Shown here: positions 3,448 through 29,630 of the stretch, piece after piece
How positions within the stretch are numbered: position 1 is the first letter of the stretch
Layout: each line of letters starts with the position of its first letter
Assembly (NCBI GenBank): GCA_964637955.1
Contig: CAZWXQ010000004.1
Span: 81,296-145,295, forward strand
Reading direction: 5' to 3'
Origin: an uncultured Gammaproteobacteria bacterium
Lineage (GTDB): Bacteria > Patescibacteriota > Microgenomatia > Levybacterales > UBA12049
Length of the DNA: 64,000 nucleotides
Program-made: the position numbers and the translations under genes
Notes under the pieces: model-generated
Databases searched by the model: none
The model's input: the letters and a program-made list of their open reading frames with translations, nothing else
Told to the model about the DNA's origin: nothing

Positions 3448-3612
3448 ACTTTATATGTAAGCTTTAGGCTTCAAATGATATAATACTCAAACGTTCCAAC
3501 ATCCTAGTAAAAATACGCAGTAATTTTAAAAGGAAAGTCCAATTTTTAGCTAATGGCTAATAACAAACGTGGAGGAGTCTCCCACAGGGATTCCTGCTAT
3601 TTATAGATATTT

Positions 3613-10551: not shown

Positions 10552-10638
10552 GGAGAGGTCGCATAGTGGACTAGTGCGGCTGTCTTGAAAACAGCTGTGG
10601 GTGCAAGCCTACCGCGAGTTCGAATCTCGCCCTCTCCG
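10552..10638 (+). tRNA. tRNA-Ser (anticodon UGA), type II
   Basis: GGAGAGG-TC-GCATAGTGGACTAGTGC-G-GCTGT-CTTGAAA-ACAGC, long variable arm, GCGAG-TTCGAAT-CTCGC-CCTCTCC-G. Confidence 0.85.
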
Positions 10639-12285: not shown

Positions 12286-15200
12286 TTATACGTCTTCTGA
12301 TTTTAATCCTTCTCCTACTGTCTTTGTGGTAGCATTATATCCTTCAAAGAATATCCAGAGCATGAAGAAAAGAAGTCCTCTGTAAACCTGAAACCTTGTT
12401 CTGTCTTTAGTTCTGGTACGGGACAACTCCTTCATCTCTTCCCAAAGTTCCTCCCCATGGCTACCCACAAAATCTGTCTTGTGATGATCTAAAAACAGGA
12501 GCATGTCATCGTTATTAAACGCTGGGGCTTCAGGTCCGAAAATTTCTTGGAGCTCATTAACTGGCCCTTTATTTGGCTTTCTTTTCCAATCCATCATTTC
12601 ATACCAAGTCCTAGCTACGCCTTTATCTTTTTCTGTTAATGTTCCCATCAGCTTATAACTTCCAAAAGTATGACGGAATACTAAGGCTGCAACTCCCGGA
12701 TCTCTATATGCTTTAACTGTAGCTGCAGCTGCTAGGGCGGCTTTTAATTTTTCTTCTTCAGACTCGGCTGTTAAAAATGTTATATAGCTTTTATGAGTTT
12801 CGGCTGCAGCAGTCGCATCATTAAATGTTCTCTTATATGCGTCTCCCCCGCTTTCTGGCGAAAGCTTTTTAGATAGTGCAGTTAGTCCCATTTCTAAGTC
12901 TTCAAACTCCATCCTGTCCAATAGCCCATCATCGACTGTAAATGTACGTAAGTTTACTTGTGCAAATCTAGAATCCTTCATTAATTTCTTAATCGTATCT
13001 GGATTTCCCGCAAATTGTTGTAATTTACCAAATAAAGTCGCTATTTTCTGAGCCTGGTCTGGACCTTTTGAAGCAAGCATGTTATCAAGAAGCTTTGCAT
13101 ACTCAGGGCGAGACATTATTTGGGAAAAATCTATTTGCTCAGGAAGCCTATTATCTTTACCGCTATACCCTAGCTCTCTAATAAGCCTTAGTGAGGCTCC
13201 ATAATCTCTTTTAAAAACATCATATAAAGTCAAATGATTTGCCTCATCAGCAGCTGTTAATTTTATTCCAGCCTCTGTAAACGCTCTGTTTGCAGCTTCT
13301 ATCTCATGCTGATGATGATCTCCATGCTCCCTAAACATTCTTACAACATCCTCTGGTTTGTATCTAGCAATCTGCTTCCATACCTTAACTCTTTCTTCGT
13401 CTTTATACTTATCCTTATCTCCTTGACTCATTCCTTTCCACCCTGGCGTATTGTAATAAGTACCATTCTGAAGAACTCTAAGCCTCATAAATAATCCGAA
13501 TTCTTTTGCCCTATCCAGTGCTTGCTGCCTATCTGCTTCGCTCAATTGACTTATGTGGGTGAGATTTCTTTGCTTTGCTATGCGATATTGCATATTTTGG
13601 TCAATTTGCTTCATAAACTCATCAAGTTTCCATCCAGATGAATACCAGTCATTTACCTGCATAAGATCTTTCATAAGCTCAGATCCATAATCCTCAAGAG
13701 CAGCCCTAGTATAATCTGGCTTAGCATCACTTCCCTTAACATGCTCATCCTCATGCTGTTTAATATGTGGATCTATTTTTATTCTCTCTTGTGCCCAAGT
13801 CTCAAAATTAATTCCTTTTTTTCTCAATGTAGATTCTGCATATCTTCTTTTTATTGCATTAAAAAATAACTGTTGTTCATGATTTAACGTTCCAAATTTA
13901 TCAATAAGAAGCTCTTCCATATTAAACATCTGAAATAGTGCTGAAGGATCTGCTAAAATTCCCTGAAGGTTAACGCCATTATCAAGAGCATTTCCACGAG
14001 CTACTATTACAGCCTCTCTCTGAGATGCTACGAAATGGTCATAAGCCGTTCTAACTGCTCTTCGTATATTTTCTTTAGCAAGAGTATTCATTCTTGAATC
14101 ACTCATGACTCCCATGTCTATTGAGGCTGGGTTTAAACCTATTTCTGCATACAAATCTTGATTTCCTGAAGCCATTATTAGCTGCGCATATTCGTCTATT
14201 ACTCTTGACTGAATTTTTGAGTGCTCTACGGGGGTCATGTGCTGATTTGCTAAAGTTATTCTTGTATCATCATATATTTCATTTATCCTGTTATGCATCC
14301 TGTTAACTAAACCACCCTCAAAACTAAGAGTATTCATGATTCCATGAGTACCAAGCGTTCCTGCAATTCCCCCTATACCTTCAAGGTTCTTCTGCTGAAC
14401 AGCTGAGCGGGCAAACATGGTATAAAGTCTATTTGTAAATTCTTCAGCAAACCTGTTAAGCTCTTTTGGATTTCTACGTCCATATTCAGTATTTGTAAGC
14501 CAACTTAAAGCTCTTTCATGAAGCTGCTGCGCACCCTGAACCAGAGGAGAACTCTGCTCCATTCCCTCTGCTGAAAAGTTGTAAATTTTATTCATTTGGC
14601 CCTCAAGCCATTTCATTGGATCTTCTGAAAGTTCGTCAAAATCCTTAGTAGTAAGATAAAGCCTAAAAGTATCTCGACTATCAAAATCTGATTGCTTAAT
14701 CTGTTCACCTATTGCGTCTTCTAGTAACTTCAATTCCTGAGATAATTCAGTTGCCTGTCTTTGCTTATCTCCTGAAGAAGTATCTATTATTTTTTGAACC
14801 GCCTTATTATACTCACCTATTAATACGGGGTCGTGGATTAAATTGTTTTTTGCAAAAGCCAACTTAACAACCATATTTTTTACCTCAGGATCGGAGTATT
14901 TATCTGCATCAAAAATCTGTATTTGTTGCGCATCAGGAGCCTCTTGCTCTGGATTTCTAGGCCTTCCCCCAGCCTGCTGTCCCTGAGGCCTTTGCTGCTT
15001 TTGTTGTCTTGGATTAAAAATGCCCTTTAACCTATCTTCTGCTAAGCGCTTAATAGTAACATCGGGATTCTGAAGCAATTTCGTGAGCTCAGCGACTTCT
15101 GCAACCTGCTCGGGAGAAAGATCAGCCACATCTGATGAACCTGCCCTTGCTGCCTCTCGAGCACGTATTTGATCCGCGGCCTGTCTTAATTCAGCCGTAC

Positions 15201-15351
15201 TACCAGACTCAGCATTTCTTAAAATTTGAGCTGAATGCTCGTCTCCTGTAATAAATTCTGGGCCCATTCCGCTTCCATCTGGCATACTATTAGGATAGGG
15301 GTTTTGGCTTGCGCCTGTCAATTGACCTGGATTAAAATTATCTCTTTCCAT
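12286..15351 (-). CDS. large hypothetical protein (1021 aa) with C-terminal TM anchor
   Basis: Long uninterrupted ORF with coding composition. C-terminal helix VYRGLLFFMLWIFFEGY. His-rich patch HGDHHQHE. No confident enzymatic motif. Confidence 0.6.
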   Translation of the reverse strand: MERDNFNPGQLTGASQNPYPNSMPDGSGMGPEFITGDEHSAQILRNAESGSTAELRQAADQIRAREAARAGSSDVADLSPEQVAEVAELTKLLQNPDVTIKRLAEDRLKGIFNPRQQKQQRPQGQQAGGRPRNPEQEAPDAQQIQIFDADKYSDPEVKNMVVKLAFAKNNLIHDPVLIGEYNKAVQKIIDTSSGDKQRQATELSQELKLLEDAIGEQIKQSDFDSRDTFRLYLTTKDFDELSEDPMKWLEGQMNKIYNFSAEGMEQSSPLVQGAQQLHERALSWLTNTEYGRRNPKELNRFAEEFTNRLYTMFARSAVQQKNLEGIGGIAGTLGTHGIMNTLSFEGGLVNRMHNRINEIYDDTRITLANQHMTPVEHSKIQSRVIDEYAQLIMASGNQDLYAEIGLNPASIDMGVMSDSRMNTLAKENIRRAVRTAYDHFVASQREAVIVARGNALDNGVNLQGILADPSALFQMFNMEELLIDKFGTLNHEQQLFFNAIKRRYAESTLRKKGINFETWAQERIKIDPHIKQHEDEHVKGSDAKPDYTRAALEDYGSELMKDLMQVNDWYSSGWKLDEFMKQIDQNMQYRIAKQRNLTHISQLSEADRQQALDRAKEFGLFMRLRVLQNGTYYNTPGWKGMSQGDKDKYKDEERVKVWKQIARYKPEDVVRMFREHGDHHQHEIEAANRAFTEAGIKLTAADEANHLTLYDVFKRDYGASLRLIRELGYSGKDNRLPEQIDFSQIMSRPEYAKLLDNMLASKGPDQAQKIATLFGKLQQFAGNPDTIKKLMKDSRFAQVNLRTFTVDDGLLDRMEFEDLEMGLTALSKKLSPESGGDAYKRTFNDATAAAETHKSYITFLTAESEEEKLKAALAAAATVKAYRDPGVAALVFRHTFGSYKLMGTLTEKDKGVARTWYEMMDWKRKPNKGPVNELQEIFGPEAPAFNNDDMLLFLDHHKTDFVGSHGEELWEEMKELSRTRTKDRTRFQVYRGLLFFMLWIFFEGYNATTKTVGEGLKSEDV

Positions 15352-15426
15352 AATGAGCGTAGTGTAAAGGAGTTAGCCCAAATAGGCTTGATATTAGAAT
15401 TACAAGCGCCTAACAATTGCCTTATA

Positions 15427-15500
15427 TTTACCATTTACCATTTATGATTTATGATTTATGATTTATGATTTATGATTTACTAAATACCATTTATGATTTA
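15427..15500. repeat. tandem heptamer array (TTTACCA x2, TTTATGA x5, then TTTACTA/TTTATGA variants)
   Basis: Read directly: ccatttaccatttatgatttatgatttatgatttatgatttatgatttactaaataccatttatgatttac, immediately upstream of a four-helix-bundle gene. Confidence 0.8.
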
Positions 15501-15548
15501 CTAAAAATTATTTACTATTTTACATTTACGATTTATCATTTAAATAAT

Positions 15549-15914
15549 GTGAATTCTCAAAAAGAAAAATTAGAATTACGACTGAAAAATTTTGGAATTG
15601 AGATCATTAAATTAGTTCGAGTATTACCCAAATCAGAAGAAAATAAAATTTTTGCAAATCAGATCATTAGATCCTCAACATCAATTGGTGCGAATTATGC
15701 TGAGGCAATCTATGGCCAAACAAAACAAGAATTTTTCCACTGTCTTAATATCTGCAGAAAAGAAACAAACGAAACACTTTACTGGCTGGAAATGATTTTA
15801 CTTACAAATCCAAGCTACAATAAGCAAATTGATATTTTAATTCTCGAGAACAAAGAATTACTTAGAATATTTATAAGCTCTGTTAAAACAATTAGCACAA
15901 AAAATGATAAATGA
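15549..15914 (+). CDS. four-helix-bundle protein (23S rRNA intervening-sequence protein family)
   Basis: KNFGIEIIKLVRVLPKSEE...IRSSTSIGANYAEA signature. Likely GTG start at 15549, in frame with the longer track ORF 15465.. whose N-terminus is repeat-encoded. Confidence 0.7.
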   Translation: MNSQKEKLELRLKNFGIEIIKLVRVLPKSEENKIFANQIIRSSTSIGANYAEAIYGQTKQEFFHCLNICRKETNETLYWLEMILLTNPSYNKQIDILILENKELLRIFISSVKTISTKNDK

Positions 15915-15938: not shown

Positions 15939-17276
15939 ATGAACGAAAACGAACTTGTGTTTGAGCGGTTTGAAGCTCTTTATCCTCCAGAAAGCTGGGA
16001 AAATGAAATTAAAAAGTTAGTTGGATTTATTTACTCAGGGAATTCAACTGAAATCATTGGATTTCCAGGTGTTGGAAGATCAAATTTACTTGGAGTACTT
16101 TCCTACAACAGAGCCTGCCGAGAACATAACCTTGGAGACAAACAAACTCAATTTCATTTTATACTCATGAATTTTACCGAAATGAGGAAAAAGAGCGAGC
16201 TTGAAGTCTTAAAATTCTTTTTTATCTCGATCGTTGATTCCTTAAAAGAGAGAAAAATGACCGAAGAAGCCCAGAGAGCCCAGGCGCTTCTTAAAGAAAG
16301 CTTTGAGATCCAGGATCAACAAGTTATCTTGCAAGGCTTAAAAAAGCTCGTTGATTATATTTCAATTGAAAAAAACTTAACCCTAGTATTCTTAATCGAC
16401 AGATTTGAAGAATATATTCCATATGTTACTCCGGAATTTTTCACTGATCTTAGGGCTCTTAGAAATAGAGCAAAATATAAATTTTCCGTAGTCTTCTCGG
16501 TGAATAGACCGTTTCAAGAATTACTAGATCCTGCTACTTATATTGATTTTAATGAATTCCTAGATGGTAATGAGATATATCTTCCCTTAAAAGACAATGC
16601 AAGTTTAAATTTTAGAATCGGCTTTCTGCAAATGAAAGCAAATGAAAATATTTCTCTGGAAAAAATAAACGAGGTATTAACCTTAACATCTGGACACGGA
16701 AAGCTAACCAGACTTTCTATCGAAGCTTTAATGGAAACAGAAGATGTTGACGACTTAAAATCACTTCTACTTAAAAGGCAAAAAATAATTTCTCTTTTTA
16801 ATGAAATCTTAAAAGGCCTAACTCCTTCAGAGCAAAATTATCTTAAAGATTTTGATCCTAAATATAAATCTGAATATCTTGAAAAAATTCATCTTATAAC
16901 TGAGGGTAAAATTTCAATTCCTCTTTTCGAAAGCTTCATAAATGAGCAAAAAAATAATCCTACAGAAGTAAAATCAGAAAAAATTACTTATAATCCTGAT
17001 ACTAACGAAATAAAAGATGGGGAAACTGTACTTTCTGATTCTCTAACATCTTCTGAATATAAATTATTAAAATTTCTAGTAGAAAACGAAGGAAAAATCC
17101 TAGAAAGAGATGAAATAATTAATGCTGTTTGGAAAGATCTATCCTCTACTGCAGGCGTGAGCGAACAAGCGCTTGACCAGCTAATCTTTAGGGTCAGGAA
17201 AAAAATTGAAGAAAATCCGAACACTCCAATCCATCTCCAAACCATAAAAGGGCGGGGATTTAAATTTACCACATAA
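15939..17276 (+). CDS. P-loop (AAA-like) NTPase fused to C-terminal OmpR/PhoB-type winged-helix DNA-binding domain (transcriptional regulator)
   Basis: Walker-A-like GFPGVGRSNLLGVL (Lys replaced by Arg). C-terminal trans_reg_C-like segment SSEYKLLKFLVENEGKILERDEIINAVW...LIFRVRKKIE...IHLQTIKGRGFKF. Confidence 0.65.
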   Translation: MNENELVFERFEALYPPESWENEIKKLVGFIYSGNSTEIIGFPGVGRSNLLGVLSYNRACREHNLGDKQTQFHFILMNFTEMRKKSELEVLKFFFISIVDSLKERKMTEEAQRAQALLKESFEIQDQQVILQGLKKLVDYISIEKNLTLVFLIDRFEEYIPYVTPEFFTDLRALRNRAKYKFSVVFSVNRPFQELLDPATYIDFNEFLDGNEIYLPLKDNASLNFRIGFLQMKANENISLEKINEVLTLTSGHGKLTRLSIEALMETEDVDDLKSLLLKRQKIISLFNEILKGLTPSEQNYLKDFDPKYKSEYLEKIHLITEGKISIPLFESFINEQKNNPTEVKSEKITYNPDTNEIKDGETVLSDSLTSSEYKLLKFLVENEGKILERDEIINAVWKDLSSTAGVSEQALDQLIFRVRKKIEENPNTPIHLQTIKGRGFKFTT

Positions 17277-17314
17277 ATCTAAGATGAATGATTTAAGATT
17301 AATGAATAAAGAGC

Positions 17315-17767
17315 ATGAAAGACGGAAAGATTGAGTCATTTACCGATTTAGTGGTATGGCAAGAGGGTCATAAGCTTGTTGTTGAAATCTACATGATTAC
17401 CAAAGACTTTCCAAACGAAGAAAAATATTCCACAACTGATCAGATGAGAAGAGCTTCTTCATCAGTCACAGCTAATATTGCAGAAGGATTTGGAAGACAA
17501 GGTATTAAAGAAAAAATCCAATTTTATTATCTTTCCAAAGACTCCCTTTCTGAATTAAAAAATTTTCTCTTCATTGCAAGGGATGTGGGATATTTATCAG
17601 AGGTCAAATTCAATTACTTATTGGAAAATTCAAACACAGTTGACAAACTTTTGCAGGGTCTTATTAGAAAAGTAAAACCTTCATCAATCCTTAATCTTAA
17701 ATCATCAATCTTCATAGAGGTTGCAATCTTTTCAACTCTATTCGGCTGTAGCTTTATGAAGAATTGA
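17315..17767 (+). CDS. four-helix-bundle protein (23S rRNA IVS protein family)
   Basis: DLVVWQEGHKLVVEIYMITKDFPNEEKYSTTDQMRRASSSVTANIAEGFGR signature. Confidence 0.75.
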   Translation: MKDGKIESFTDLVVWQEGHKLVVEIYMITKDFPNEEKYSTTDQMRRASSSVTANIAEGFGRQGIKEKIQFYYLSKDSLSELKNFLFIARDVGYLSEVKFNYLLENSNTVDKLLQGLIRKVKPSSILNLKSSIFIEVAIFSTLFGCSFMKN

Positions 17768-17998
17768 AGAAGCAAGCGTCTGATAAGGAATGCCCTCTTC
17801 TATTGCTTTTCTTTTTAACCTTGAGAGATCACGTTCTGTTAATCGAATATTTATGTTTCGTGTTTTATTAAGAGTATTACGAGCAATATCCATAGCTTCT
17901 TTTTTCTCTTTTTCTTGATTTTCTAAAGGAATCCACTCGCCTCTTTCGACTTCATCCAAAAGCTTTTGCTCCTCATCTGTTAGCTTAAAATATTTCAT
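17738..17998 (-). CDS. brnA: BrnA-type antitoxin (RHH/CopG-like)
   Basis: C-terminal NIRLTERDLSRLKRKAIEEGIPYQTLASSILHKA, typical of BrnA. 3 nt downstream of the brnT-like gene. Confidence 0.7.
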   Translation of the reverse strand: MKYFKLTDEEQKLLDEVERGEWIPLENQEKEKKEAMDIARNTLNKTRNINIRLTERDLSRLKRKAIEEGIPYQTLASSILHKATAE

Positions 17999-18001
17999 AT
18001 T

Positions 18002-18277
18002 TTAATTTTTGATTATATATTTTTTTGTCATTTTTCTACTTGGAAATATTGTTTTTAAAAATCGTTTTTCTTCGTCATCGACGAATGGCACTAAAAATAC
18101 GTATTTATTTATATTTACTATGTACATCTTTTGATTTGGATAACGTTTTTTATTTGGATGATCAATAGTTTCTAATAAATTTCCATCATCAATTGCCTGA
18201 ACAACATCCTCAAAACAAACCCCTCTGTCCTCTTTTAACCATTCATTTTTCTTCTTATCCCAATCAAAATATTTCAC
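18002..18277 (-). CDS. brnT: BrnT-family toxin (DUF497 ribonuclease)
   Basis: N-terminal KYFDWDKKKNEWLKEDRGVCFEDVVQAI matches the BrnT motif (FEWDxxKxxxNxxKHGIxFEEA). About 90 aa. Own promoter TTGACA-17-TAAAAT at about 18290-18320 (minus strand). Confidence 0.75.
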   Translation of the reverse strand: MKYFDWDKKKNEWLKEDRGVCFEDVVQAIDDGNLLETIDHPNKKRYPNQKMYIVNINKYVFLVPFVDDEEKRFLKTIFPSRKMTKKYIIKN

Positions 18278-18339
18278 AACTTTCTTAAAATTATTTTATG
18301 ACAAATGATATTATATGTCAATAAATATATGCTTACCAC

Positions 18340-18478
18340 AGACCATAAAAGGCCAGGGATTTAAATTTAGCTCGTAAATAAAGCAAAATTCAAAAGTCAA
18401 AATGCAAAATTGCAATTCAAAAAGTCCAAATTTTTTATTTTTTACTATATCTTTTGACTTTTAATTTTTGAGTTTTAA
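18340..18478. repeat. repeat copy 1: 3' end of regulator gene (CCATAAAAGGCCAGGGATTTAAATT) plus about 100-bp element with inverted arms CAAAAGTCAAAA...TTTTGACTTTT
   Basis: About 97% identical to 19117-19260. First 30 nt match the last codons of the 15939..17276 gene (...TIKGRGFKF). Confidence 0.7.
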
Positions 18479-18501
18479 GTTTAATTATAGCGCAAATTCT
18501 A

Positions 18502-18533: not shown

Positions 18534-18848
18534 TTGGTGACAAGAATATTACCAAAGCCCATTTCCTTTGAATGGGATAAAGGGAATATTGAAAAGAACT
18601 GGAACAAGCATAACGTCACACAAAAAGAAGCTGAAGAAACATTTATCAATAAGCCATTTTTTGTGGTAAATGACAAAAAACATTCTTCTAAAGAGGAGCA
18701 GAGATTTCAAGCATTGGGTAAATCAAAAAGTAACAGAAAATTATTTTTAGTTTTTACAATAAGAGAAATTAGCATTAGGATAATTTCTGCAAGAGATATG
18801 AATAAAAAAGAAAGGAGCATGTATGAAAAAATTAAAACCAATACCTGA
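18534..18848 (+). CDS. brnT: BrnT-family toxin (DUF497)
   Basis: ISFEWDKGNIEKNWNKHNVTQKEAEETF motif; 104 aa; overlaps downstream antitoxin by 26 nt. Confidence 0.75.
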   Translation: MVTRILPKPISFEWDKGNIEKNWNKHNVTQKEAEETFINKPFFVVNDKKHSSKEEQRFQALGKSKSNRKLFLVFTIREISIRIISARDMNKKERSMYEKIKTNT

Positions 18849-19095
18849 ATTTAAAAATGAAAACGAAGAAAGAGATTTTTGGGCTACTGCTGACTCGACT
18901 GAATATATCGATTGGTCTATGGCTGAGGAGGTAATTTTCCCAAATTTAAAATTTTCAACAGAATCAATTTCCCTCAGGCTCCCTTCTTTTTTACTAGCCA
19001 GGATTAAAGAGCTCGCTAACAAACAAGACGTACCATATCAATCTTTAATGAAAATTTATCTAAGTGAAAGGGTAAATAAAGAATTAAATAGTTAA
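18823..19095 (+). CDS. brnA: BrnA-type antitoxin (RHH)
   Basis: C-terminal ISLRLPSFLLARIKELANKQDVPYQSLMKIYLSERV. Confidence 0.7.
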   Translation: MKKLKPIPEFKNENEERDFWATADSTEYIDWSMAEEVIFPNLKFSTESISLRLPSFLLARIKELANKQDVPYQSLMKIYLSERVNKELNS

Positions 19096-19116
19096 AACGC
19101 CTTAATATCCTACCTC

Positions 19117-19260
19117 ATCTCCAAACCATAAAAGGCCGGGGATTTAAATTCACCTCTTAAATAAATCAAAGTTCAAAAGTCAAAATGCAAAATTGCAATT
19201 CAAAAAGTCCAAATTTTTTATTTTTTACTTTATCTTTTGACTTTTAATTTTTGGATTTTA
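19117..19260. repeat. repeat copy 2: regulator-gene 3' remnant (encodes ...LPHLQTIKGRGFKFTS*) plus about 100-bp inverted-repeat element
   Basis: 35/36 nt identical to 17233-17268 of the regulator gene, followed by an element 97% identical to 18378-18475. Confidence 0.7.
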
Positions 19261-19408
19261 ACTTAAAATATTTGCAAAATATTTTCATTTATTCTACGCT
19301 AAATCCAGCACCTAATAATTACATTTGATGTTTGTAAATCTGACAGCTATTAGGCTTAGATTTAATTAAAAAGTTTGAATTTTCTTAAATAGGTGCTAGG
19401 ATAAAATC

Positions 19409-20590
19409 GTGAAGAGAAAATTAATTTATTTTATATTTAGTCTTTTTATATTAATCTCTCAATCATTAATCTTCGCTCCCGCCTTTTCCCCAAAAGCACA
19501 TGCTCTAAACGATTTATGGGACTGTAAAATTTCCTACATAGAGCCAAATCCCCTTACAGATAGCGATAAAAAAATTGACAAGATAACCATAAGCACAGGT
19601 GTTTCAACCCCAGGAAAATACAATGTTTATATAGATGATAAAGGAGGGGACGGCGATATTCATAGAATTAAATCACCCGTCAAATCAGGAGATCATCAAA
19701 TTACAATTGATACCCCATTTGATAAGGAAGGAAGAAGCGTAGATACTAACGACCCAACATTTAAACCTAACTCAACCCTTGATTTTTGGGTGACTCCAAA
19801 ATCAATGAACTCAGACATTTGGCCCGGCACACAGCTTAGCGAGATGGATAAAAGATCTTTTTGTAGAGTCAGTATAGATATTGGGGAAGGAATAGGGGGA
19901 AATGTAAACGAAAGCGAATGTAAAATTCTTGCATCTGGAGAAGGGGTTGGCAAGCCAGTACATCTTAATGTCACCTTTAAAGAAAACTCTGAATACTTAA
20001 ATAATAACTTTCTAATTATAGTTAAAAGCCTTACATCAGGCCAAGAAGTGGAAAGATACAGCCCATATAGCGCTAGCGATCTGCAGAATCCAGGAGTTGA
20101 ACTAAGTAAATTTGACGGGGTTAATCATGTACCCACTATTTTCGATGTTGATGGATATCAAGTAGATCTTCACACCAACGCCGGTCCTCCTTTATGCTCT
20201 TCAATTTTTACAGTAACAGAAACTGGAATTAACAATGCGAAAAGCGCATTCGATGCAGGACTTGGGTTTTTTGCCTGCTCCCCAGACGATCCACTAAATC
20301 CAAAAGAATACACTTGCCACACTGCTATTGGCGACGTTTCCACAGATCCTGAAGGGTTTATAAGAACAGTTTTGGCTTTAATTCTGGGACTAGCAGGCGG
20401 CATACTTCTGATAGTAATCATCTTAAACGGATACAAATTCATGGTTTCCCAAGGAGACCCTGAAAAAATTAAAGATGCCAGGGAAGGCATAGTAGCAGCC
20501 ATTATGGGAATCTTTCTTATCATATTTTCGCTTACTCTCCTAACCATAGTGACTTCAAATATTCTTGATATACCGGGATTTGGAAGCTAG
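19409..20590 (+). CDS. secreted protein with large N-terminal ectodomain fused to a C-terminal T4SS-pilin-like two-helix module
   Basis: Signal peptide MKRKLIYFIFSLFILISQSLIFAPA. C-terminal LILGLAGGILLIVIILNGYKFMVSQGDPEKIKDAREGIVAAIMGIFLIIFSL matches the module shared by the three downstream pilins. Confidence 0.6.
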   Translation: MKRKLIYFIFSLFILISQSLIFAPAFSPKAHALNDLWDCKISYIEPNPLTDSDKKIDKITISTGVSTPGKYNVYIDDKGGDGDIHRIKSPVKSGDHQITIDTPFDKEGRSVDTNDPTFKPNSTLDFWVTPKSMNSDIWPGTQLSEMDKRSFCRVSIDIGEGIGGNVNESECKILASGEGVGKPVHLNVTFKENSEYLNNNFLIIVKSLTSGQEVERYSPYSASDLQNPGVELSKFDGVNHVPTIFDVDGYQVDLHTNAGPPLCSSIFTVTETGINNAKSAFDAGLGFFACSPDDPLNPKEYTCHTAIGDVSTDPEGFIRTVLALILGLAGGILLIVIILNGYKFMVSQGDPEKIKDAREGIVAAIMGIFLIIFSLTLLTIVTSNILDIPGFGS

Positions 20591-20719
20591 AATAGCGACT
20601 AAATGGTAGCGTTTAGGGCTTAGTTAAGAGTAATAAGCAGATATAATCATTTTGGTTCAATTTTCAATTTGAAATTTAAAATTTGAAATAAAACCTGTTT
20701 GCCGACAGGCAAAATTTAA

Positions 20720-21074
20720 ATGATAAATGAAGTTAAATATGACCTAGAGGAAAGAACTACATTATTTTCTGAGGAAATTATTAATCTTTGTAAAAAAAAC
20801 TCCTAAAAATATTGTTACTATTCCCATCGTCAATCAGCTTATCAGATCTGGAACTTCAATTGGAGCAAACTATATGGAAGCGAATGGTGCCAGCAGCAAA
20901 AAAGATTTTAAGAATAAAATATTTATTTGTAAAAAAGAGTCCAAAGAAACAAAATACTGGATAAGGCTACTTGCAAATACCTCCAAAGAAGTCGAAAATG
21001 ACTGTAGACTACTTTGGAAAGAAGCTCAAGAATTGACTTTAATTTTCTCTAAAATTGCAGTAAACACGAAATAG
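20720..21074 (+). pseudogene. four-helix-bundle protein gene disrupted by a frameshift in an A8 tract (20792-20799)
   Basis: MINEVKYDLEERTTLFSEEIINLCKKNS* then +1 frame continues ...IVTIPIVNQLIRSGTSIGANYMEANGASSKKDFKNKIFICKKESKETKYWIRLL. Removing one A restores a full-length protein. Confidence 0.55.
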
Positions 21075-21145
21075 TTTTAAAATTAGTGAATTAACATTTG
21101 ACTGAAAATTAAAAATTTTAAATTTTAAATTCTGATTAACCTAAA

Positions 21146-21463
21146 ATGAAACTAATTTCTTATAAAATTCCAGGTGGCGAAGTGACCGGAGTAGAGGGCA
21201 TGCCAGATAAAGGCTGGGACAGCTTTCAAGGCCTTGTTACGTGGGGTATGACCGTTATCATGATCGGCGCTTCTCTACTTTGCCTTTTTCTTCTTATCAT
21301 GGGTGGGATTCAATGGATCACCTCAGGCGGAGACAAATCTGGGATTGAGGGTGCCAGAAAAAGAATAATTTATGCTCTAATCGGCCTCGTCATAATATTT
21401 TCGTCCTATTTTATAATTAATTTTGTGGGAGATTTTTTTAATTTAAATTTGCTAGGAATCTAA
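21146..21463 (+). CDS. T4SS pilin-like protein (CPR-type, two TM helices)
   Basis: TM1-IMGGIQWITSGGDKSGIEGARKRIIYALIGLVIIF-TM2 module, about 105 aa. Resembles the T4SS_pilin family described from Patescibacteria / VirB2-TrbC-like. Confidence 0.65.
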   Translation: MKLISYKIPGGEVTGVEGMPDKGWDSFQGLVTWGMTVIMIGASLLCLFLLIMGGIQWITSGGDKSGIEGARKRIIYALIGLVIIFSSYFIINFVGDFFNLNLLGI

Positions 21464-21492
21464 AGAAACTGCCCTTCTCTAGAACTCCCCTC

Positions 21493-21942
21493 TTGACAAA
21501 CATTTTAAAACTCCTTACGATCATATTATCTATGAAAAAAGTATCTGCTCTTATTTTTTCCGGAGCTACTTATCTTTCCCTAGCTACGCATGCTTTTGCA
21601 GAAACTCCTATCAACCCTTGTCCAGAAGCCAATCCTGACGGAGCAAATTTTAACATACTTTGCACATTAGCTCCGGGCGGTAGCCTCATATCTTTTCTCG
21701 TTACTGTTGCATTTATTGCAGCCTCTCTCATAGCACTGGGTTTTCTTATTTTTGGGGGAATAAAATGGATAATGTCAGGTGGCGATAAGTCTGGAGTAGA
21801 AGCAGCAAGAAACATGATAGTTGCCGCTTTAGTTGGACTTGTAATTACGTTTTTAGCATATCTCATAATAAACGTCGTATTTACATTCTTTAATTTAGGG
21901 AGCATTACTGGCCTTGTACTCCCTACAATTCCTACGCATTAA
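21493..21942 (+). CDS. T4SS pilin-like protein
   Basis: Signal-like N-terminus, then IFGGIKWIMSGGDKSGVEAARNMIVAALVGLVITF module. Probable true start at internal MKKVSAL (about 21532). Confidence 0.65.
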   Translation: MTNILKLLTIILSMKKVSALIFSGATYLSLATHAFAETPINPCPEANPDGANFNILCTLAPGGSLISFLVTVAFIAASLIALGFLIFGGIKWIMSGGDKSGVEAARNMIVAALVGLVITFLAYLIINVVFTFFNLGSITGLVLPTIPTH

Positions 21943-22019
21943 GAGATTAGATCTAAGCCTGCATTAAGTTAGCTCTTGTTGTTTTTTAATAATTACTCTG
22001 TTACGCTTTATTTAGATTT

Positions 22020-22829
22020 ATGAGAAAAGTTTTCTTATTTTTTTTGGTTTTAATTAGCTTCGCATTATCCTTATATATTTCAAATCCTAAAATAGTCCTT
22101 GCCGAAGGCCCAAACGAAGGAATAAAACTTAGGGAACTTGAAGATACTGGCTGCTTGTATAAGGATGATGATTCTGCGGTAAATGCTGACATCGTTAAGA
22201 GCGTAAATGAAGAAAATGGATATGTCCTCACCTTAGACTGCGTTCCCGTACTTTTCTTCAATTTAGTATTCTGGGCGCTTACTTTTGCTGGACTAGTAGC
22301 ACTACTCTTTGTAATCTTTGGTGGCTTTAAATATATGACCTCTGGAGGCGATCAGAAAGCCGTAGATGGGGGGAGAAAGACTATCACCTGGGCTATCATA
22401 GGGCTTATCGTAATTCTCTTCTCATTCGCGACCGTGAGATTTATTGCAGATATAACTGGCATGGAGTGCTTAACTAGATTTGGATTTATAGGAACTTGTG
22501 GAACAGCAAATGGTGGAGGCGGTGGTGGTGGTGGTGGTGGAGGCGGAGATGGTGGCTGGTGTAGTGATGTTAATCCATCAGGCAGATGTCACACAGAAGG
22601 ACAGGTGTGTAGGATTGAAGGCGGTACACCCACTTGTAGATTTGATTGCGACAACAACCACAGAAATGGCTGGTGCGCTTCCCCTGAAAAATGCAAGAGA
22701 TTCAACGATAATGTTAATATTTATAAATGCCAACTAAAATGCGACGGAATACAAAACGGATACTGTCCAAATGGACAAATTTGCACGTATAATTCCGTGG
22801 ATGGACTTTATCAGTGCCAAAGTCACTAA
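22020..22829 (+). CDS. T4SS pilin-like protein with C-terminal poly-Gly linker and Cys-rich (knottin/EGF-like) domain
   Basis: IFGGFKYMTSGGDQKAVDGGRKTITWAIIGLIVIL module, then G13 run, then about 90 aa with 16 Cys (CSDVNPSGRCHTEGQVCRIEGGTPTCRFDCDNN...). Confidence 0.65.
   Translation: MRKVFLFFLVLISFALSLYISNPKIVLAEGPNEGIKLRELEDTGCLYKDDDSAVNADIVKSVNEENGYVLTLDCVPVLFFNLVFWALTFAGLVALLFVIFGGFKYMTSGGDQKAVDGGRKTITWAIIGLIVILFSFATVRFIADITGMECLTRFGFIGTCGTANGGGGGGGGGGGGDGGWCSDVNPSGRCHTEGQVCRIEGGTPTCRFDCDNNHRNGWCASPEKCKRFNDNVNIYKCQLKCDGIQNGYCPNGQICTYNSVDGLYQCQSH
22511..22555 (+). repeat. GGT/GGA/GGC triplet repeat encoding poly-Gly
   Basis: ggtggaggcggtggtggtggtggtggtggaggcggagatggtggc inside CDS 22020..22829. 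Confidence 0.8.
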
Positions 22830-23038
22830 TATTACACATCTGCCGAGAACACAAAGAATATATTATACAAAATAGATCAGAAGAAAATTAAGAGAATTGT
22901 AAATAAACTATTTGATGAAATAAAAATTGCGCAGACCCTAATTCGCCAAGTTAATAAGCATTTAAATTAAATTTAAATCTAGTACATTAAATGAGCTTCT
23001 GCTATGGTTTTGTAGGAACCTTCGGATCATAATTGACT

Positions 23039-24334
23039 CTAGCGCTGCCCCCCGGGAGTAATCGCGCCACCTGCAAAATCCTTAAATGCACTTGCTGCCA
23101 CAATCGCTACGATTGCAAAAAAGCTCATGCCCTTTAACTTTTTATATTTTTCCTGTTCAAGCTGGCCGAAAAGCTCAGTCATAAATTTAGTTGCTTCTTC
23201 TTGATTCTTAAATTCCCTACCTGTTATCAGCTGTGCAACATTTTTTACCTTAAATACGTCAAAATTCTTTAACATTTCTTCCATATTTCCTCCATCGCCA
23301 AGATCTAAAATAGCATCTGCCCGATGCCTCGGCATTCCGGCCGCCTCCATATTTTTTAGGAGTAAATCTCTAGATGCTGTTCGAGCAGCTTCTACGCGGG
23401 CGGCTTCAACTGGCGAAAGCTGCAAGCCCTCTGCTTCTGGAATATCTTTATAATATGCATTAAGCACCCTTATAGCGTCTCCCATCACATAATCCGCTAA
23501 AGGCTTACCTGTATACGTCTTTGCTCCTCGTACAAGATCAAGCATATTCTGTAATTTTTCAACATCAGCCTTAGGATCTTTATCTTGTATATCCTTAATG
23601 TCTTGGGCTAATCTTGCTTCATATGCATCCATACTCTTTTTTTGAATCTCGGTGACTACTGTGGCATCTGCTTCTGGAGCAGGGTCGTAGCTGGTCGTAT
23701 ATTTACCATCCCTAATTAATCCTTCGATAACAGCTTTCCTGTCTGGAGTTAAAGTAGGAGACTCTAACTCTATTTCTAAGTCAGAGAGATTTCCCGCTTC
23801 TCCATTCTGACCAATTAGCTGCATGTCTTTACTTATTTCTTCATAAGTGGATTTAGCAACCTCATAATCTGGACTATCGCTGGGGACAGTTTTAAGTAAT
23901 CTTAATAAATTTCTCCTATTTTCTGTTATCGCAACTGAAGGATCTGCTGAAGTTGATGAATCATATTCTATACCTGATCTTTCCAAAATTTGTTTCGCTG
24001 AAGTAAATAAACGACCTATTTGTTCTGCTCTGGGTATATTCAAAAATTCCTGAATAGCTGAGTCTAAAATCTCAATGTTAACATCCGCAGATGCTCCAGA
24101 CTGAGCATCAGAAGTAGCCGACTCGGGTCCAACATCGGCACCATCAACAGACTGATCTTCTGGTAATTCAGCAACTGGAACATCGCCTACGGGTGGCACA
24201 GCTTCAGATGGAGGCTTAGGATCTGGCGACACAACCGAATCTGTAACGGGTGCTGGATTAACTTCTTCAGGACCGGCAATTTCTGCTGGATCTAATCCCA
24301 TTTCGACTGCGCTTGGACCACCATCTATAGGCAT
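23039..24334 (-). CDS. hypothetical acidic protein with C-terminal TM anchor
   Basis: 431 aa. P/A/E-rich N-terminus. C-terminal MSFFAIVAIVAASAFKDFAGG hydrophobic tail. Looks GC-richer than flanks by eye. Confidence 0.55.
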   Translation of the reverse strand: MPIDGGPSAVEMGLDPAEIAGPEEVNPAPVTDSVVSPDPKPPSEAVPPVGDVPVAELPEDQSVDGADVGPESATSDAQSGASADVNIEILDSAIQEFLNIPRAEQIGRLFTSAKQILERSGIEYDSSTSADPSVAITENRRNLLRLLKTVPSDSPDYEVAKSTYEEISKDMQLIGQNGEAGNLSDLEIELESPTLTPDRKAVIEGLIRDGKYTTSYDPAPEADATVVTEIQKKSMDAYEARLAQDIKDIQDKDPKADVEKLQNMLDLVRGAKTYTGKPLADYVMGDAIRVLNAYYKDIPEAEGLQLSPVEAARVEAARTASRDLLLKNMEAAGMPRHRADAILDLGDGGNMEEMLKNFDVFKVKNVAQLITGREFKNQEEATKFMTELFGQLEQEKYKKLKGMSFFAIVAIVAASAFKDFAGGAITPGGQR

Positions 24335-24387
24335 AAATTAATACTATATTCATTGCGACCCAATTTCAAGTGTGCTAATCTTAAATT

Positions 24388-26523
24388 ATGTCTGAAGTTA
24401 ATCCGGCAATTCAAGCAGCTGCACATGTCACTCCGCCTGCAACAAACGAATTTATGCCTGCTGCTGCGGCAGATACACATGGTACTGCAGATACTCATGG
24501 AGCGCCTGCGACTGGAACCCATGGCGAAGCTCCACCGGCTCAGCCCAAACAAAGCCGTATGGATAAATTATTTCGGAGAGCTCCAGAAGCTCCAAAGCCT
24601 CCCTCTAATGAAGGCGCAAACGCTAGGCAATCCAGTGTGGTTGAGGGTGGAAAAACCACAAAAACCATACAATTTGATCCGGAAACAAAAGCCAAGATCA
24701 CAGACATCTTGACTGCAAGAATTACTAAAGCAGAGCTTTCAAAAACAAGAGAACCCATCTCCGAAATAGACCAGCGCCTGATTGAATCAGGAATTATGGG
24801 GAGGCTTGCAGATGGAACATATACAGATAAGGACATTTTTACAATTCAAGCTGTTATCACCGACGACTATCTTGAAGGCTCGGCTTACATAGGCAGAATA
24901 GGTGTTTATGATAAAAGACAAGGCAGAGATGTAGGCATTCGCCAAGATGGCAAGATAATGACTCGGATGGATCCAGATCGCAGATATAACCAGCCTACAG
25001 AAGAAAAATTGGCTGCCTTAAACGCTCTAAGAATAAAAGTAAATGAAACTTTACTGGGAAAAGGAGCTAAGGATCCTCTTATTGACTATAATTCATCTAT
25101 TTATCCATATGATCTTATGCGAGGATCTGGCCTAATTTTTAATCAAGAGCTAGCAAAGCAAATTGATGCTTTAGTTACCCAATATTTCCCAGGTGAATCT
25201 GTGAAATCTATATGGAAAAAGGATAGGCCAAAAATGGCAGAAATTATGATCCAGGCAAATGAAAATGCTTTCAAATTCCTAATCGAGGGTAGAGCAGATT
25301 CCATACTTCGGGATCCACCTGACATCAGCGTCGATGCCATAAGACAAAGAGCGACAGAGGCAGGCGGGCCTCCTTCTCAAGAAAAAATAGCACAACTTAC
25401 AAAAGAGGTTGCTGAAGCAACAGAAGCAGAATTAAATGCTCAGCAAGCATACGACGCCCTAGAAGCTAAATATAAGTCTTTGAAGGTATTAAAAAGAACA
25501 AAAGATGATGCCGATGCTGCAGTTAGAAGCTTTAACACTAGCGCAACAGGCCCTGGTGGATTAATAGAAACTGCAAGACAAAATTTATTCGATACAAAAG
25601 CTCGACAAGCTGAAGCTGATCCAAAACAAAAATCTGCTCTCCAGACTAGCGTAGATAGGTATGCTGAGGAGTTAAAAGCATTATTAACAAAACAAGAGCA
25701 GCTTCTAAATGCTCAAGCAACAGCAGGACTCAATTTTACAAATGAAGAACAAGCAGAGCTAGATGAGATCTATAAAGCTGCTGACGGTACTAATCCTGCA
25801 ACCGGAAAATTAAAAGATGCAGAAGAAGCATTAGGAGATGATACTAGGGGAAGAAAGAAAGATACAATTGACAAGCAAAAGGCTTTAAAAGCAGCACAAG
25901 AAAGTGGACCAAAGCCATCAAAAGAGGCTGTGGCAAAATCCGAACAACTTACCTCTTGGGCAGATAGTTATGAGAAAAAAGGGAAAATAACAGAAACTAT
26001 CTGGAAGCAAGGCGATTCAGATCCTTATTCTATAAAAAGCATAAAAGACATCACCATTACGCCGGACGGAACAGTGAAGGGATACGATGCGCTTTTAGAG
26101 CTCATGTTTATTGCAGCAGACCCTAAAGGAGCAGGAAAACACTCGCTGGATCATTATAGACAAATGATGCGTCCTGAGGTTTTTGCCCAACGAGTTCTTA
26201 AAGAGTTTCCAGTCAGAGATCCAAATGAGCCTATCAGCCCACTCACACATAGCTCACTAAACGCTTTAATACATGAGATTGAGCAAGGTGCTCCTGAGAT
26301 AAATGCATTAATGGCTCAACCTTCAAGAACTAATGAGGTAGAATATAGACTCAGGACAATTATGGAAAGCAGAAGAAGAGCCGTAGCTGAAATTACCCAA
26401 ATCGCATTAAATCAATTACCATCAGCCAATAAAGCTGGGTTTGCAAGCTTTGTAAATGAATTAATGATTGAAGGTGCTAGGTCTGCAATGAGAGGAGACC
26501 CACAGTTAAAACTAAACTACTAA
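24388..26523 (+). CDS. hypothetical protein (711 aa)
   Basis: Long ORF, helical/coiled-coil-rich middle, no recognisable catalytic motif; within T4SS island. Confidence 0.55.
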   Translation: MSEVNPAIQAAAHVTPPATNEFMPAAAADTHGTADTHGAPATGTHGEAPPAQPKQSRMDKLFRRAPEAPKPPSNEGANARQSSVVEGGKTTKTIQFDPETKAKITDILTARITKAELSKTREPISEIDQRLIESGIMGRLADGTYTDKDIFTIQAVITDDYLEGSAYIGRIGVYDKRQGRDVGIRQDGKIMTRMDPDRRYNQPTEEKLAALNALRIKVNETLLGKGAKDPLIDYNSSIYPYDLMRGSGLIFNQELAKQIDALVTQYFPGESVKSIWKKDRPKMAEIMIQANENAFKFLIEGRADSILRDPPDISVDAIRQRATEAGGPPSQEKIAQLTKEVAEATEAELNAQQAYDALEAKYKSLKVLKRTKDDADAAVRSFNTSATGPGGLIETARQNLFDTKARQAEADPKQKSALQTSVDRYAEELKALLTKQEQLLNAQATAGLNFTNEEQAELDEIYKAADGTNPATGKLKDAEEALGDDTRGRKKDTIDKQKALKAAQESGPKPSKEAVAKSEQLTSWADSYEKKGKITETIWKQGDSDPYSIKSIKDITITPDGTVKGYDALLELMFIAADPKGAGKHSLDHYRQMMRPEVFAQRVLKEFPVRDPNEPISPLTHSSLNALIHEIEQGAPEINALMAQPSRTNEVEYRLRTIMESRRRAVAEITQIALNQLPSANKAGFASFVNELMIEGARSAMRGDPQLKLNY

Positions 26524-27013: not shown

Positions 27014-27394
27014 TTGATGAGCAACATTAAATCACATAAAGACCTAATTGTATGGCAAAAAAGCATACTTCTCGTAAAAGAGATCTTTATTTTAACTGAT
27101 TCTTTTCCTCAATCTGAAAAATTTGGTATCACAAATCAGATGAGAAGGGCTGCAGTTTCTATTCCTTCAAATATTGCTGAGGGCTATGGAAGGAAATCAA
27201 CTAAAAGCTTTAATCAGTTTTGCTCTATAGCATATGGTTCAGCCTTAGAATTAGAAACTCAAATGATAATTTCTAAAGAACTTGAACTTGGTACAAATAA
27301 TTCTTTTACACTTTCAGAAGATTTATTGCTAGAAGTATTAAAGATGCTTAATAAATTAACAGGAAGTTTTAAAAGTATAACTACTAGTATCTAA
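27014..27394 (+). CDS. four-helix-bundle protein (23S rRNA IVS protein family)
   Basis: HKDLIVWQKSILLVKEIFILTDSFPQSEKFGITNQMRRAAVSIPSNIAEGYGR. Flanked by near-identical 12-13-bp direct repeats TCTAGTTAYTAGT (26982-26994 and 27398-27410). Confidence 0.75.
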   Translation: MMSNIKSHKDLIVWQKSILLVKEIFILTDSFPQSEKFGITNQMRRAAVSIPSNIAEGYGRKSTKSFNQFCSIAYGSALELETQMIISKELELGTNNSFTLSEDLLLEVLKMLNKLTGSFKSITTSI

Positions 27395-28766: not shown

Positions 28767-28803
28767 TTTTCAATTTGAAATTTTAAATTTAAAATCAAAA
28801 AAA

Positions 28804-28959
28804 ATGAACAAAACAAATAAAAATAATTACGACCTAGAAGAAAGAACTACTGTTTTTACAGTAGTAACAAAGAGGCTTAGAAATGACTATAAAGTGCTTT
28901 GGCAACAGGTTCAAAAGCTAACCTTAGTTTTTTCCAAGATAGCTGTAGATATTAAATGA
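28804..28959 (+). pseudogene. internally deleted four-helix-bundle gene remnant
   Basis: Encodes N-terminal NYDLEERTTVF joined directly to C-terminal LWQQVQKLTLVFSKIAVDIK. Compare the 20720 copy YDLEERTTLF...LLWKEAQELTLIFSKIAVNTK. The middle roughly 60 codons are missing. Confidence 0.5.
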
Positions 28960-28982: not shown

Positions 28983-29630
28983 ATGAGAAAAACTGTCCAA
29001 AAAACAAGCCCAACAACTCAACATTTCACTGGTATTGAAGACATTGTTGAAAATATTGTAATTCTCCCAGGCAAGCAGGCTGCCCAAATCATAGAAGTAG
29101 TTGCGACCAATTTTTCACTTCAATCCGCAGACGAGCAGCAGGTAAAAATTCTGTCTTACGCTTCTCTTCTTAATTCACTCTCATTCCCAATCCAGATCGT
29201 AATAATAAGTCGCAAGCTTGATATTTCTTCATATTTAGCACTTTTAGACAATCAGGCAAGAGTCATAAAAAATCCAAAGCTCTCAGAGCATATTGGCCAT
29301 TATAAAGACTTCATCTCAGATCTTGTTAAGAATAACGATGTTTTAGATAAGAAGTTTTATGTAGCAATTTTATACTCCTTCCTTGAAAAAGGTCCGGGAA
29401 TGCCCACGCAGACCAAAGATAAAAATGCTTTTGCGGCTGAAGCCAAAAACATTCTCGATTCCAAATCCCTTTCTATAGTTCAAGAGCTTGCCAGAGTTGG
29501 ACTTAAATCAAATGTTCTTGGAAAAAAAGAATTAATCAGAGTTTTTTATGAGCTGTTTAACCAAGAAAAACCAGACGAAAGAATTCTTGAAAACATCCAT
29601 GAAACTCACGTTCAGGGAGGAAAAAGATGA
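28983..29630 (+). CDS. VirB4-family ATPase, N-terminal domain encoded as a separate ORF
   Basis: HFTGIEDIVENIVILPGKQAAQIIEVVATNFSLQSADEQQ..ILSYASLLNSLSFPIQIVIISRKLDIS resembles the N-terminal region of VirB4/TraC/PrgJ-type proteins. Stop overlaps the next start (ATGA). Confidence 0.55.
   Translation: MRKTVQKTSPTTQHFTGIEDIVENIVILPGKQAAQIIEVVATNFSLQSADEQQVKILSYASLLNSLSFPIQIVIISRKLDISSYLALLDNQARVIKNPKLSEHIGHYKDFISDLVKNNDVLDKKFYVAILYSFLEKGPGMPTQTKDKNAFAAEAKNILDSKSLSIVQELARVGLKSNVLGKKELIRVFYELFNQEKPDERILENIHETHVQGGKR

Follow-up and report, generated by a model that had tools for sequence, protein, structure and literature searches.

A fixed set of four VirB2-like pilin classes, two with appended domains, in an origin-proximal type IV secretion locus of Patescibacteria

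The 64,000-nucleotide (nt) stretch analysed here (the window; contig CAZWXQ010000004.1, positions 81,296 to 145,295), from the genome of an ultra-small bacterium of the Patescibacteria, probably of the Microgenomates group, carries four neighboring genes that make up the VirB2-like pilins of a type IV secretion system (T4SS) encoded on the chromosome near the replication-origin genes. As judged by sequence comparison, these genes, designated classes A to D, are four stable orthologous classes in a fixed order and are not recent duplicates. Two of the pilins are extended by parts that structural models predict to be folded domains on the extracytoplasmic side, an N-terminal ectodomain in class A and a cysteine-rich tail in class D. 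In the reading that we favor, with a probability of roughly 0.6, the conserved hairpins would assemble together at the T4SS, and variable host-contact modules would be provided by the appended domains, with class A as an adhesin or initiator and the class D tail as an optional part.

Four pilins share a hairpin module

A previous inspection of the window that used the nucleotide sequence and its open reading frames (ORFs), here called the sequence-only reading, had reported four genes with a common pilin module. The ORFs were confirmed on the plus strand, and each matched the Pfam family PF18895 (T4SS_pilin). Their parts, in amino acids (aa), are as follows:

19409-20590, plus strand: class A pilin, 393 aa (ORF and PF18895 match)
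21146-21463, plus strand: class B minimal pilin, 105 aa (PF18895, 30.1 bits; best-match position and hydropathy)
21532-21942, plus strand: class C pilin, 136 aa from ATG 21532 (listed ORF, 149 aa from TTG 21493)
22020-22502, plus strand: class D pilin core, aa 1-161 (PF18895, 32.4 bits; whole ORF, 22020-22829, 269 aa)
22503-22556, plus strand: class D linker, T-A-N-G12-D-G-G (read from the sequence; Tandem Repeats Finder)
22557-22829, plus strand: class D Cys-repeat tail, three units of ∼30 aa, then the stop codon (cysteine alignment; AlphaFold2)

The gathering score of PF18895 is 26.6 bits. The Pfam hidden Markov model scored the class A gene at 40.8 bits and, like it, classes B and D exceeded this threshold; the 21493 ORF of class C scored 21.9 bits, which is under the gathering score even though the E value was 1.9e-4, and its positional orthologues are likewise weak. 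The four modules are 25 to 27% identical to one another in an alignment, and in each the two hydrophobic helices are separated by a core, S-x-G-D ... R ... G, that is invariant among them. Hydropathy analysis found the hydrophobic segments in all four pilins, and inspection found signal-peptide-like N termini in three of the four.

Class B lacks both a signal peptide and conserved cysteines, and its hydrophobic helices span aa 29 to 62 and 72 to 98. Class C consists of a signal peptide, a single N-terminal cysteine pair, and the hairpin. Both had been described as minimal pilins, and both do carry the module, but the start assigned to class C did not hold up as well: TTG 21493 is probably wrong and ATG 21532 the true start, because a normal signal peptide results and because the same start was called on an independent Logan contig (L005). 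The class D core has a signal peptide, an N-terminal cysteine pair (C45/C74), a hairpin at aa 72 to 146, and a C-terminal cysteine pair (C150/C160) within the motif C-L-T-R-F-G-F-I-G-T-C. In the AlphaFold2 models of classes A and D, the module was predicted in both cases as a two-helix hairpin with a short polar loop (helices at aa 314 to 346 and 351 to 385 in class A and at aa 72 to 107 and 112 to 146 in class D). The proposal that the module is a two-helix, VirB2-like T4SS pilin is thus supported by both models, by the PF18895 match, and by the T4SS locus.

Arrays of Patescibacteria pilin genes have been defined as 2 to 11 pilin genes with ∼25% identity that stand in tandem or one non-pilin gene apart (PMC12102498). 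The window pilins fit this definition, with four genes and one degraded gene of the 23S_rRNA_IVP family (IVP) between the first and the second. Two tandem pilin modules in a single ORF were seen elsewhere, in a 219-aa protein of Woykebacteria (P0011) and in a 214-aa protein of L032/L034 (positions 420-1064).

The array lies in a T4SS locus next to replication-origin genes

The genes that place the array are as follows:

15939-17276, plus strand: regulator, 445 aa, with a C-terminal winged-helix Trans_reg_C domain (Pfam)
20727-21074, plus strand: degraded 23S_rRNA_IVP-family gene between classes A and B (PF05635)
27420-28766, plus strand: PrgI/VirB3-like protein (Pfam PrgI)
28983-29630, plus strand: TrsD-like VirB4 N-terminal homologue, 215 aa (NCBIfam VirB4_plasma)
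29627-31879, plus strand: VirB4-like ATPase (Pfam P-loop_TraG, AAA_10, and TraC_F_IV)
35802-36917, minus strand: dnaN (Pfam DNA_pol3_beta domains)
37085-38455, minus strand: dnaA (TIGR00362, E value of 1.6e-129)

The PrgI, TrsD-like, and VirB4 genes lie 4.6 to 7 kb 3' of the pilins on the same strand and are syntenic in the related loci L001 and L006. Because dnaN and dnaA are adjacent to the T4SS genes, the locus is origin proximal; it adjoins the replication-origin genes. In L001 and L006, too, the regulator gene immediately precedes class A, and its product is a candidate regulator of the array. The GC content is 30 to 42%, and the closest labelled relatives belong to Levyibacteriota (Microgenomates group). 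No relaxase was seen among the scanned genes of the locus. A promoter and terminator scan performed at chance level and was uninformative on operon structure.

Four orthologous classes in fixed order

Eight related loci were compared with the window (L001, L006, L010, L016, L017, L022, L024, and L031); L007 was excluded because the relevant gene is masked with Ns. In L001, whose core genes are 75 to 88% identical to those of the window at the protein level, the regulator is followed by pilins of 398, 119, 152, and 163 aa and then by the T4SS genes. The order A to D is the same in the other seven loci. The best match of a window pilin was the gene at the same position in all eight loci for classes A, C, and D and in six of the eight for class B (position 2), and these same-position matches mostly outscored any paralogue in the window. 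The class B protein, for example, is 79% identical to its L001 orthologue.

Each class can also be told by signatures of its own. Class A is long, with an N-terminal domain that contains 6 to 20 cysteines; class C has a signal peptide and one cysteine pair, and class D has a signal peptide and two. Positional orthology together with these class-specific signatures points to distinct, non-interchangeable roles. In at least 11 related loci the first gene of the array encodes a pilin with a long N-terminal domain, and cysteine tails recur in several, so that the fused forms are not confined to this genome.

Class A has a rapidly evolving ectodomain

The sequence-only reading placed a secreted domain of roughly 300 aa in front of the class A module. 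This was borne out: aa 1 to 32 resemble a signal peptide, ∼280 non-membrane residues follow, and the pilin module occupies aa 314 to 385. Structure prediction, which had been suggested as a check, was run with AlphaFold2 on an alignment of 25 sequences and gave a model with a mean predicted local distance difference test (pLDDT) score of 80.9, in which the ectodomain folds as two beta-sandwich domains (approximately aa 38 to 160 and 170 to 276). A small, conserved, disulfide-bridged hairpin forms a neck at aa 290 to 311. The modelled beta-sandwich fold matches solved FN3 domains, in line with an FN3 or Ig-like fold, and the ectodomain thus models as two FN3-like beta-sandwiches.

All loci compared have a class A pilin with a large N-terminal ectodomain, but the two parts of the protein differ greatly in conservation. 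Compared with the L001 orthologue, the ectodomain is 17 to 37% identical per 30-residue bin and the module is 83 to 97% identical; VirB4 and the regulator are 86% and 88% identical between the same two loci. Across 24 homologues the ectodomain is 13 to 37% and the module 43 to 89% identical. The two parts can also disagree on relationship, in that the ectodomain of P0017 is closer to that of the window than is the ectodomain of P0018, but the P0017 module is less similar. In class A, these sequence comparisons indicate, change has been much faster in the ectodomain than in the pilin module.

Class D ends in a glycine linker and a cysteine-repeat tail

Class D is one uninterrupted ORF for the pilin, a glycine run, and the cysteine-rich tail. 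The linker had been given as 13 glycines; direct reading gives 12 (aa 165 to 176, nt 22512-22547), followed by D-G-G. The claim of a GGT-type repeat was correct, with a perfect (GGT)6 inside the run and a period-3 repeat at 22511-22561 detected by Tandem Repeats Finder. The pLDDT of the linker was 30 to 39, a prediction that indicates disorder. Slippage in the GGT tract would alter the length of the linker in frame only, and no variant of another length was seen in the assembled sequences.

The tail was reported to have 16 cysteines, which is the count for the whole protein. There are 12 in the 92 aa that follow the linker, and the remaining four (C45, C74, C150, and C160) belong to the conserved pilin core. 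The 12 are arranged as three copies of a ∼30-aa repeat with four cysteines each. The structure prediction suggested for the cysteine-rich domain was run as well, and the tail was predicted to be folded, as three beta-hairpins with pLDDT of 67 to 84. The description of the tail as a knottin fared poorly. A knottin was rejected because each unit has four cysteines rather than six and because no knottin was found among Pfam matches (E ≤ 10) or Foldseek matches. Pfam gave no match to the tail, and Foldseek against PDB returned follistatin and tandem-EGF matches that were nonsignificant (E values of 0.14 to 0.8; TM score below 0.25), so that EGF-like is at most a loose description.

The closest class D orthologues have no such tail. 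Ten orthologues with 47 to 70% identity end at, or a few residues past, ...F-I-G-T-C-G. In the DNA of L001 the sequence GGA CCT TAA stands where the window runs on into glycine codons, and homology stops at 22502. The window has ∼540 bases more than L001 here, made up of 327 nt of tail and a 209-bp AT-rich spacer. A homologous tail is present on a 221-aa class D pilin from a JGI metagenome (P0057), behind a short non-glycine linker, and a third instance, in L016, is cut by the end of the contig; both are from unrelated samples and are ∼40% identical to the window fusion. As ten orthologues end where the tail begins and two distant ones keep it, with an unchanged cysteine pattern over the readable sequence, these comparisons indicate that the class D Cys-repeat tail is accessory.

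A HMMER scan of 1.84 billion representatives with the tail gave seven matches. A profile search of a 5.8-billion-protein collection with a four-sequence tail alignment gave none, and the word index of that search probably cannot seed on the repeat. The repeat also occurs in two secreted non-pilin proteins, P0051 and P0056, and all 12 cysteines are invariant among the window tail, the P0057 tail, and the repeats of these two proteins. P0056 combines FN3, Ig-like, and dockerin-like parts (the last by sequence inspection), and its gene adjoins a cohesin gene. The tail repeat appears to be an uncurated bacterial extracellular module that is also found in secreted multidomain proteins.

Other appended segments, and variation between strains

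Shorter tails of a similar kind were found in other loci. A single four-cysteine unit ends two pilins in L017 and pilins in L030/L044, and a glycine-rich linker with a four-cysteine unit is present in L028 (GGNGGN) and L029 (GGGGG). Pilins of L032/L034 have a 113-aa domain of a non-cysteine type.

Over 3.6 kb, L028 and L029 share 97.2% identity and show 101 differences, of which 59 fall within 200 bp (L028 positions 1401-1600) that encode the glycine linker and four-cysteine tail of one pilin. The stretches of 1.1 and 1.9 kb that flank this segment have no differences. Lesser clusters of differences were seen in the first pilin gene (L028 positions 101-300) and at 3501-3639. The distribution identifies the glycine linker and four-cysteine tail as a hotspot of strain-level variation in the L028/L029 lineage.

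A model for the pilin set, and alternatives

In the model that we favor, each pilin would be a membrane hairpin whose N and C termini lie outside the cell, while its short polar loop (S-G-G-D) faces the interior. Both appended parts, the FN3-like pair and the cysteine tail, are taken as extracellular because of the known topology of VirB2/TraA, the signal peptides, and the disulfide content; in a filament of the VirB2/TraA type both would lie on the outer surface. At the T4SS the conserved hairpins would assemble together, forming a pilus or else a shorter conduit at the surface, with the appended domains as its variable host-contact parts. Class A might be a low-copy adhesin or initiator subunit, and the class D tail might be a flexibly tethered module for binding or spacing that is optional and can be exchanged. 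We infer topology, filament assembly, tip location, and host binding, and the tip or adhesin role that the sequence-only reading gave the fused pilins is plausible. The bases counted for this model are family membership, the predicted folds, the T4SS context, orthology, the contrast in evolutionary rates, gain and loss of the tail, the presence of the tail repeat in secreted non-pilin proteins, the strain-level variation in L028 and L029, and the in-frame tail of the independent assembly.

Several points weigh against it. No pilus has yet been demonstrated for any Patescibacteria T4SS, and T4SSs of monoderms are described as normally lacking pili (PMC12102498, PMC12857230). The resemblance to VirB2 is distant: with the TrbC/VirB2 model (PF04956; gathering score, 27.9 bits), two pilins scored 14.6 and 12.1 bits and the other two gave no match, which indicates remote similarity only, although one relative (P0012) bears both PF18895 and PF04956 labels. 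Structure searches with the hairpin returned generic helical hairpins, with no solved pilin among the matches, and a PDB sequence search with a profile of the module gave noise only. A bulky domain of 280 aa on each subunit would not fit a packed filament, so that sparse or terminal incorporation of class A has to be assumed. Effectively two sequences underlie the tail model in its own region, and the binding, stoichiometry, and tip location of the appended domains are likewise parts of the model that we infer.

Some of these points could also be accommodated if the hairpin were a membrane anchor or an accessory subunit of the T4SS channel that holds the ectodomains at the cell surface, with no pilus at all, much as in the larger transmembrane proteins of Mycoplasma elements that contain a hairpin. 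The general lack of pili in monoderm T4SSs, the generic hairpins from the structure searches, and the difficulty of packing a large N-terminal domain all favor such an anchor, as does sub-threshold similarity of the window pilins to ∼300-aa proteins of Mycoplasma integrative and conjugative elements (ICEs; NF045848 and NF045889) and to the pilin-like NF045849. However, two of the four pilins are minimal and have almost nothing to anchor, and the module is above the PF18895 threshold. The presence of four hairpin classes with a strongly conserved module (83 to 97% in class A) also suggests specific hairpin-hairpin assembly. We therefore regard the anchor as rather unlikely.

A further alternative is that the four genes are interchangeable antigenic or host-range cassettes, expressed singly or in mixture, a role suggested for VirB2 paralogues in Bartonella and Anaplasma. 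This has been proposed for Patescibacteria arrays too (PMC12102498), and low identity between paralogues (∼25%) and hypervariable appended domains speak for it. However, the classes are conserved one to one, in the same order, in eight other loci and have their own signatures, which argues for nonredundant roles, and the variation sits in the appended domains rather than in which paralogues are present. Moreover, neither inversion repeats nor template repeats were detected in the array. Interchangeable cassettes thus seem improbable.

It is highly improbable that the tail is an artefact of mis-assembly, of a frameshift in the GGT tract, or of read-through into a formerly separate downstream gene: low-complexity GGN tracts are error prone, the nearest orthologues have no tail, and the exact 269-aa protein is absent from the clustered protein collection, but a second assembler gives an identical sequence (contig L005, assembled separately by Logan from SRR14271336, matches 20660-25520 at 100% identity with no gaps and has the tail in frame), pilin and tail recur at ∼40% identity in the two unrelated samples (with all 12 cysteines kept in P0057), the tail is predicted to fold, and L001 has no separate downstream gene there, the convergent neighbor being 8 bp away.

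The favored model of co-assembling hairpins can be carried one step further, tentatively. VirB2-type pilins of Patescibacteria might serve as modular scaffolds for display, and the four classes might form a heteromeric filament in which host-recognition domains are fused to particular pilin classes and exchanged between strains to set host range, instead of being supplied by a separate adhesin of the VirB5 or PrgB type. If true, this would name the missing adhesin of an essential, functionally unexplained secretion system.

Neighboring genes and inserted elements

Several unannotated envelope proteins are also encoded downstream of the pilin array. Between the array and the PrgI gene lie two genes for cysteine-free, low-complexity proteins (23039-24334, minus strand, and 24388-26523, plus strand), which are 45% and 36% identical to their L001 counterparts, compared with 75 to 88% for the T4SS core genes, and may be fast-evolving secreted or effector-like proteins. 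An 829-aa protein encoded after VirB4 (31894-34383, plus strand) has one transmembrane segment and a proline-rich stretch, and its extracellular C-terminal region, especially the part encoded at 34165-34338, holds 12 cysteines. A relationship of this region to the class D tail was considered and rejected: when the window was searched by tblastn with the tail as query, the single weak match (E value of 0.046) fell here and was judged probably compositional.

Upstream of the regulator are genes for a 526-aa protein with approximately seven hydrophobic segments (10692-12272, plus strand; 83% identical in L001) and a 1,021-aa soluble protein (12286-15351, minus strand; 75% identical in L001). Neither matches a known family. 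Both are kept beside the regulator in L001 and are candidates for a VirB6-like channel subunit and another T4SS component. Further upstream of the T4SS region are a tmRNA gene (299-710) and six tRNA genes (3613-3702, 3959-4043, 5257-5343, 7371-7455, 7508-7580, and 10552-10638), several of them 85 to 90 nt long.

The pilin system does not include the degraded IVP gene that separates classes A and B. Its ORF at 20874-21074 matches positions 48 to 101 of the PF05635 profile, and the fragment upstream of 20874 has an in-frame stop and resembles a copy at 28801-28857. L001 lacks this insert, and its pilin genes adjoin one another. The degraded gene is one of four genes or remnants of this family (bAvd-like, four-helix) that are spread over 13 kb of the T4SS locus, each in a gap between genes, and that are listed here with the neighboring toxin-antitoxin genes:

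15465-15914: IVP-family gene or remnant
17315-17767: IVP-family gene
20727-21074: degraded IVP-family gene, as above
27014-27394: IVP-family gene or remnant
17738-18277, minus strand: BrnT/CopG-like toxin-antitoxin pair
18534-19095, plus strand: BrnT/CopG-like toxin-antitoxin pair

The copy at 28801-28857 is a short N-terminal IVP fragment after the PrgI gene. Tandem repeats of 7/14 nt (ATTTATG/ATTTACC) at 15412-15558 extend across the start of the IVP ORF at 15465, and independent Logan contigs end at IVP-associated AT-rich repeats (20659-20693 and 28765-28799). The 3'-terminal ∼45 nt of the regulator gene are present in three copies with 77 to 91% identity (17232-17278, 18333-18379, and 19116-19162), and a 150-nt stretch that includes the region 5' of the first pilin is duplicated at 91% (18339-18488 and 19122-19271). 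These copies flank the IVP gene at 17315-17767 and the two toxin-antitoxin pairs, and all of these elements are absent from the syntenic L001. This looks like repeated cassette insertion with target-site duplication. A diversity-generating retroelement was rejected: the bAvd-like genes belong to the 23S_rRNA_IVP family, and no pair of template and variable repeats was found (the pilin coding sequences contain no direct repeat of ≥25 nt, short chance-level pairs excepted), a reverse transcriptase not having been specifically searched for.

Comparison with known systems

The array itself is of a known kind. In a survey of Patescibacteria, 441 arrays of 2 to 11 VirB2-like pilin genes were reported in 383 assemblies, most commonly in Microgenomatia and Saccharimonadia, with ∼25% identity between members (PMC12102498; Quiñonero-Coronel 2025). 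There, the Patescibacteria T4SS is described as a monoderm-type machine with VirB2-like pilins, often near the origin, and no adhesins were detected in 3,035 genomes. A series of predicted pilins is likewise part of the T4SS of Southlakia epibionticum, and both system and pilin series were reported to be essential for epibiotic growth in this one tested species (PMC10633639; Wang 2023). A T4SS review treats a Patescibacteria pilus as a possibility only (PMC12857230). The passages matched in these three papers mention no pilins with fused domains, fixed classes, cysteine tails, or a contrast in evolutionary rates. Relative to those passages, what is new here is the fixed class structure, the ectodomain-bearing class A, the recurrent hypervariable Cys-repeat tails, and the idea of the missing adhesin.

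The window pilins share with the published Patescibacteria arrays the PF18895 family and the arrangement of tandem, low-identity paralogues by PrgI/VirB3-like, TrsD-like, and VirB4-like genes near the origin. They differ in that the members of those arrays, as the matched passages present them, are small and structurally similar pilins, whereas here there are fixed classes and appended domains. A fixed four-class set, rather than a pool of interchangeable variants, changes how such arrays should be annotated and compared. If the fused ectodomain and tail are host-contact parts, they are testable candidates for host recognition and would offer a sequence marker for differences in host range between strains, since variation concentrates in these segments.

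Like VirB2, TrbC, and TraA of diderm T4SSs (PF04956), the pilins contain two hydrophobic helices and, in the minimal classes, little else; unlike them, they score below the PF04956 threshold, and their host is a monoderm without an outer-membrane complex. In the solved F and T pili the pilin termini are on the outside of the filament, so that terminal additions are displayed, and short peptides on the C terminus of F-pilin have been displayed experimentally. We know of no natural VirB2-family pilin with folded extra domains. The tip adhesin of diderm T4SSs is a separate protein, VirB5.

In type IV pili, minor pilins such as PilV of R64, with its shufflon, and CofB/TcpB have bulky or variable C-terminal domains, are low copy or at the tip, and set partner specificity. 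The window pilins resemble them in joining a conserved polymerization module to a large or variable outward domain, although the fold and machinery are unrelated and the array lacks inverted or direct repeats resembling those of a shufflon. The tail resembles EGF and follistatin modules as a tandem series of short, disulfide-stabilized beta-hairpin units; however, its units have four cysteines rather than six, and the structural matches are nonsignificant.

Among mobile elements there is a parallel with Mycoplasma ICEs, which are also monoderm loci of the MPF-FATA type that encode small, pilin-like hairpin proteins together with larger hairpin proteins. All four window pilins match NF045849 (Mbov_0395 family), with at most 32.9 bits against a cutoff of 40, and the class A module also matches the larger ICE transmembrane families NF045848 and NF045889 below threshold. 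The window pilins are thus not members of these families, and the ICEs are mobile and conjugative, whereas the window locus is chromosomal. Nevertheless, the similarity hints that pilin-like hairpins exist in MPF-FATA-type monoderm systems, contrary to PMC12102498, which assumes their absence there.

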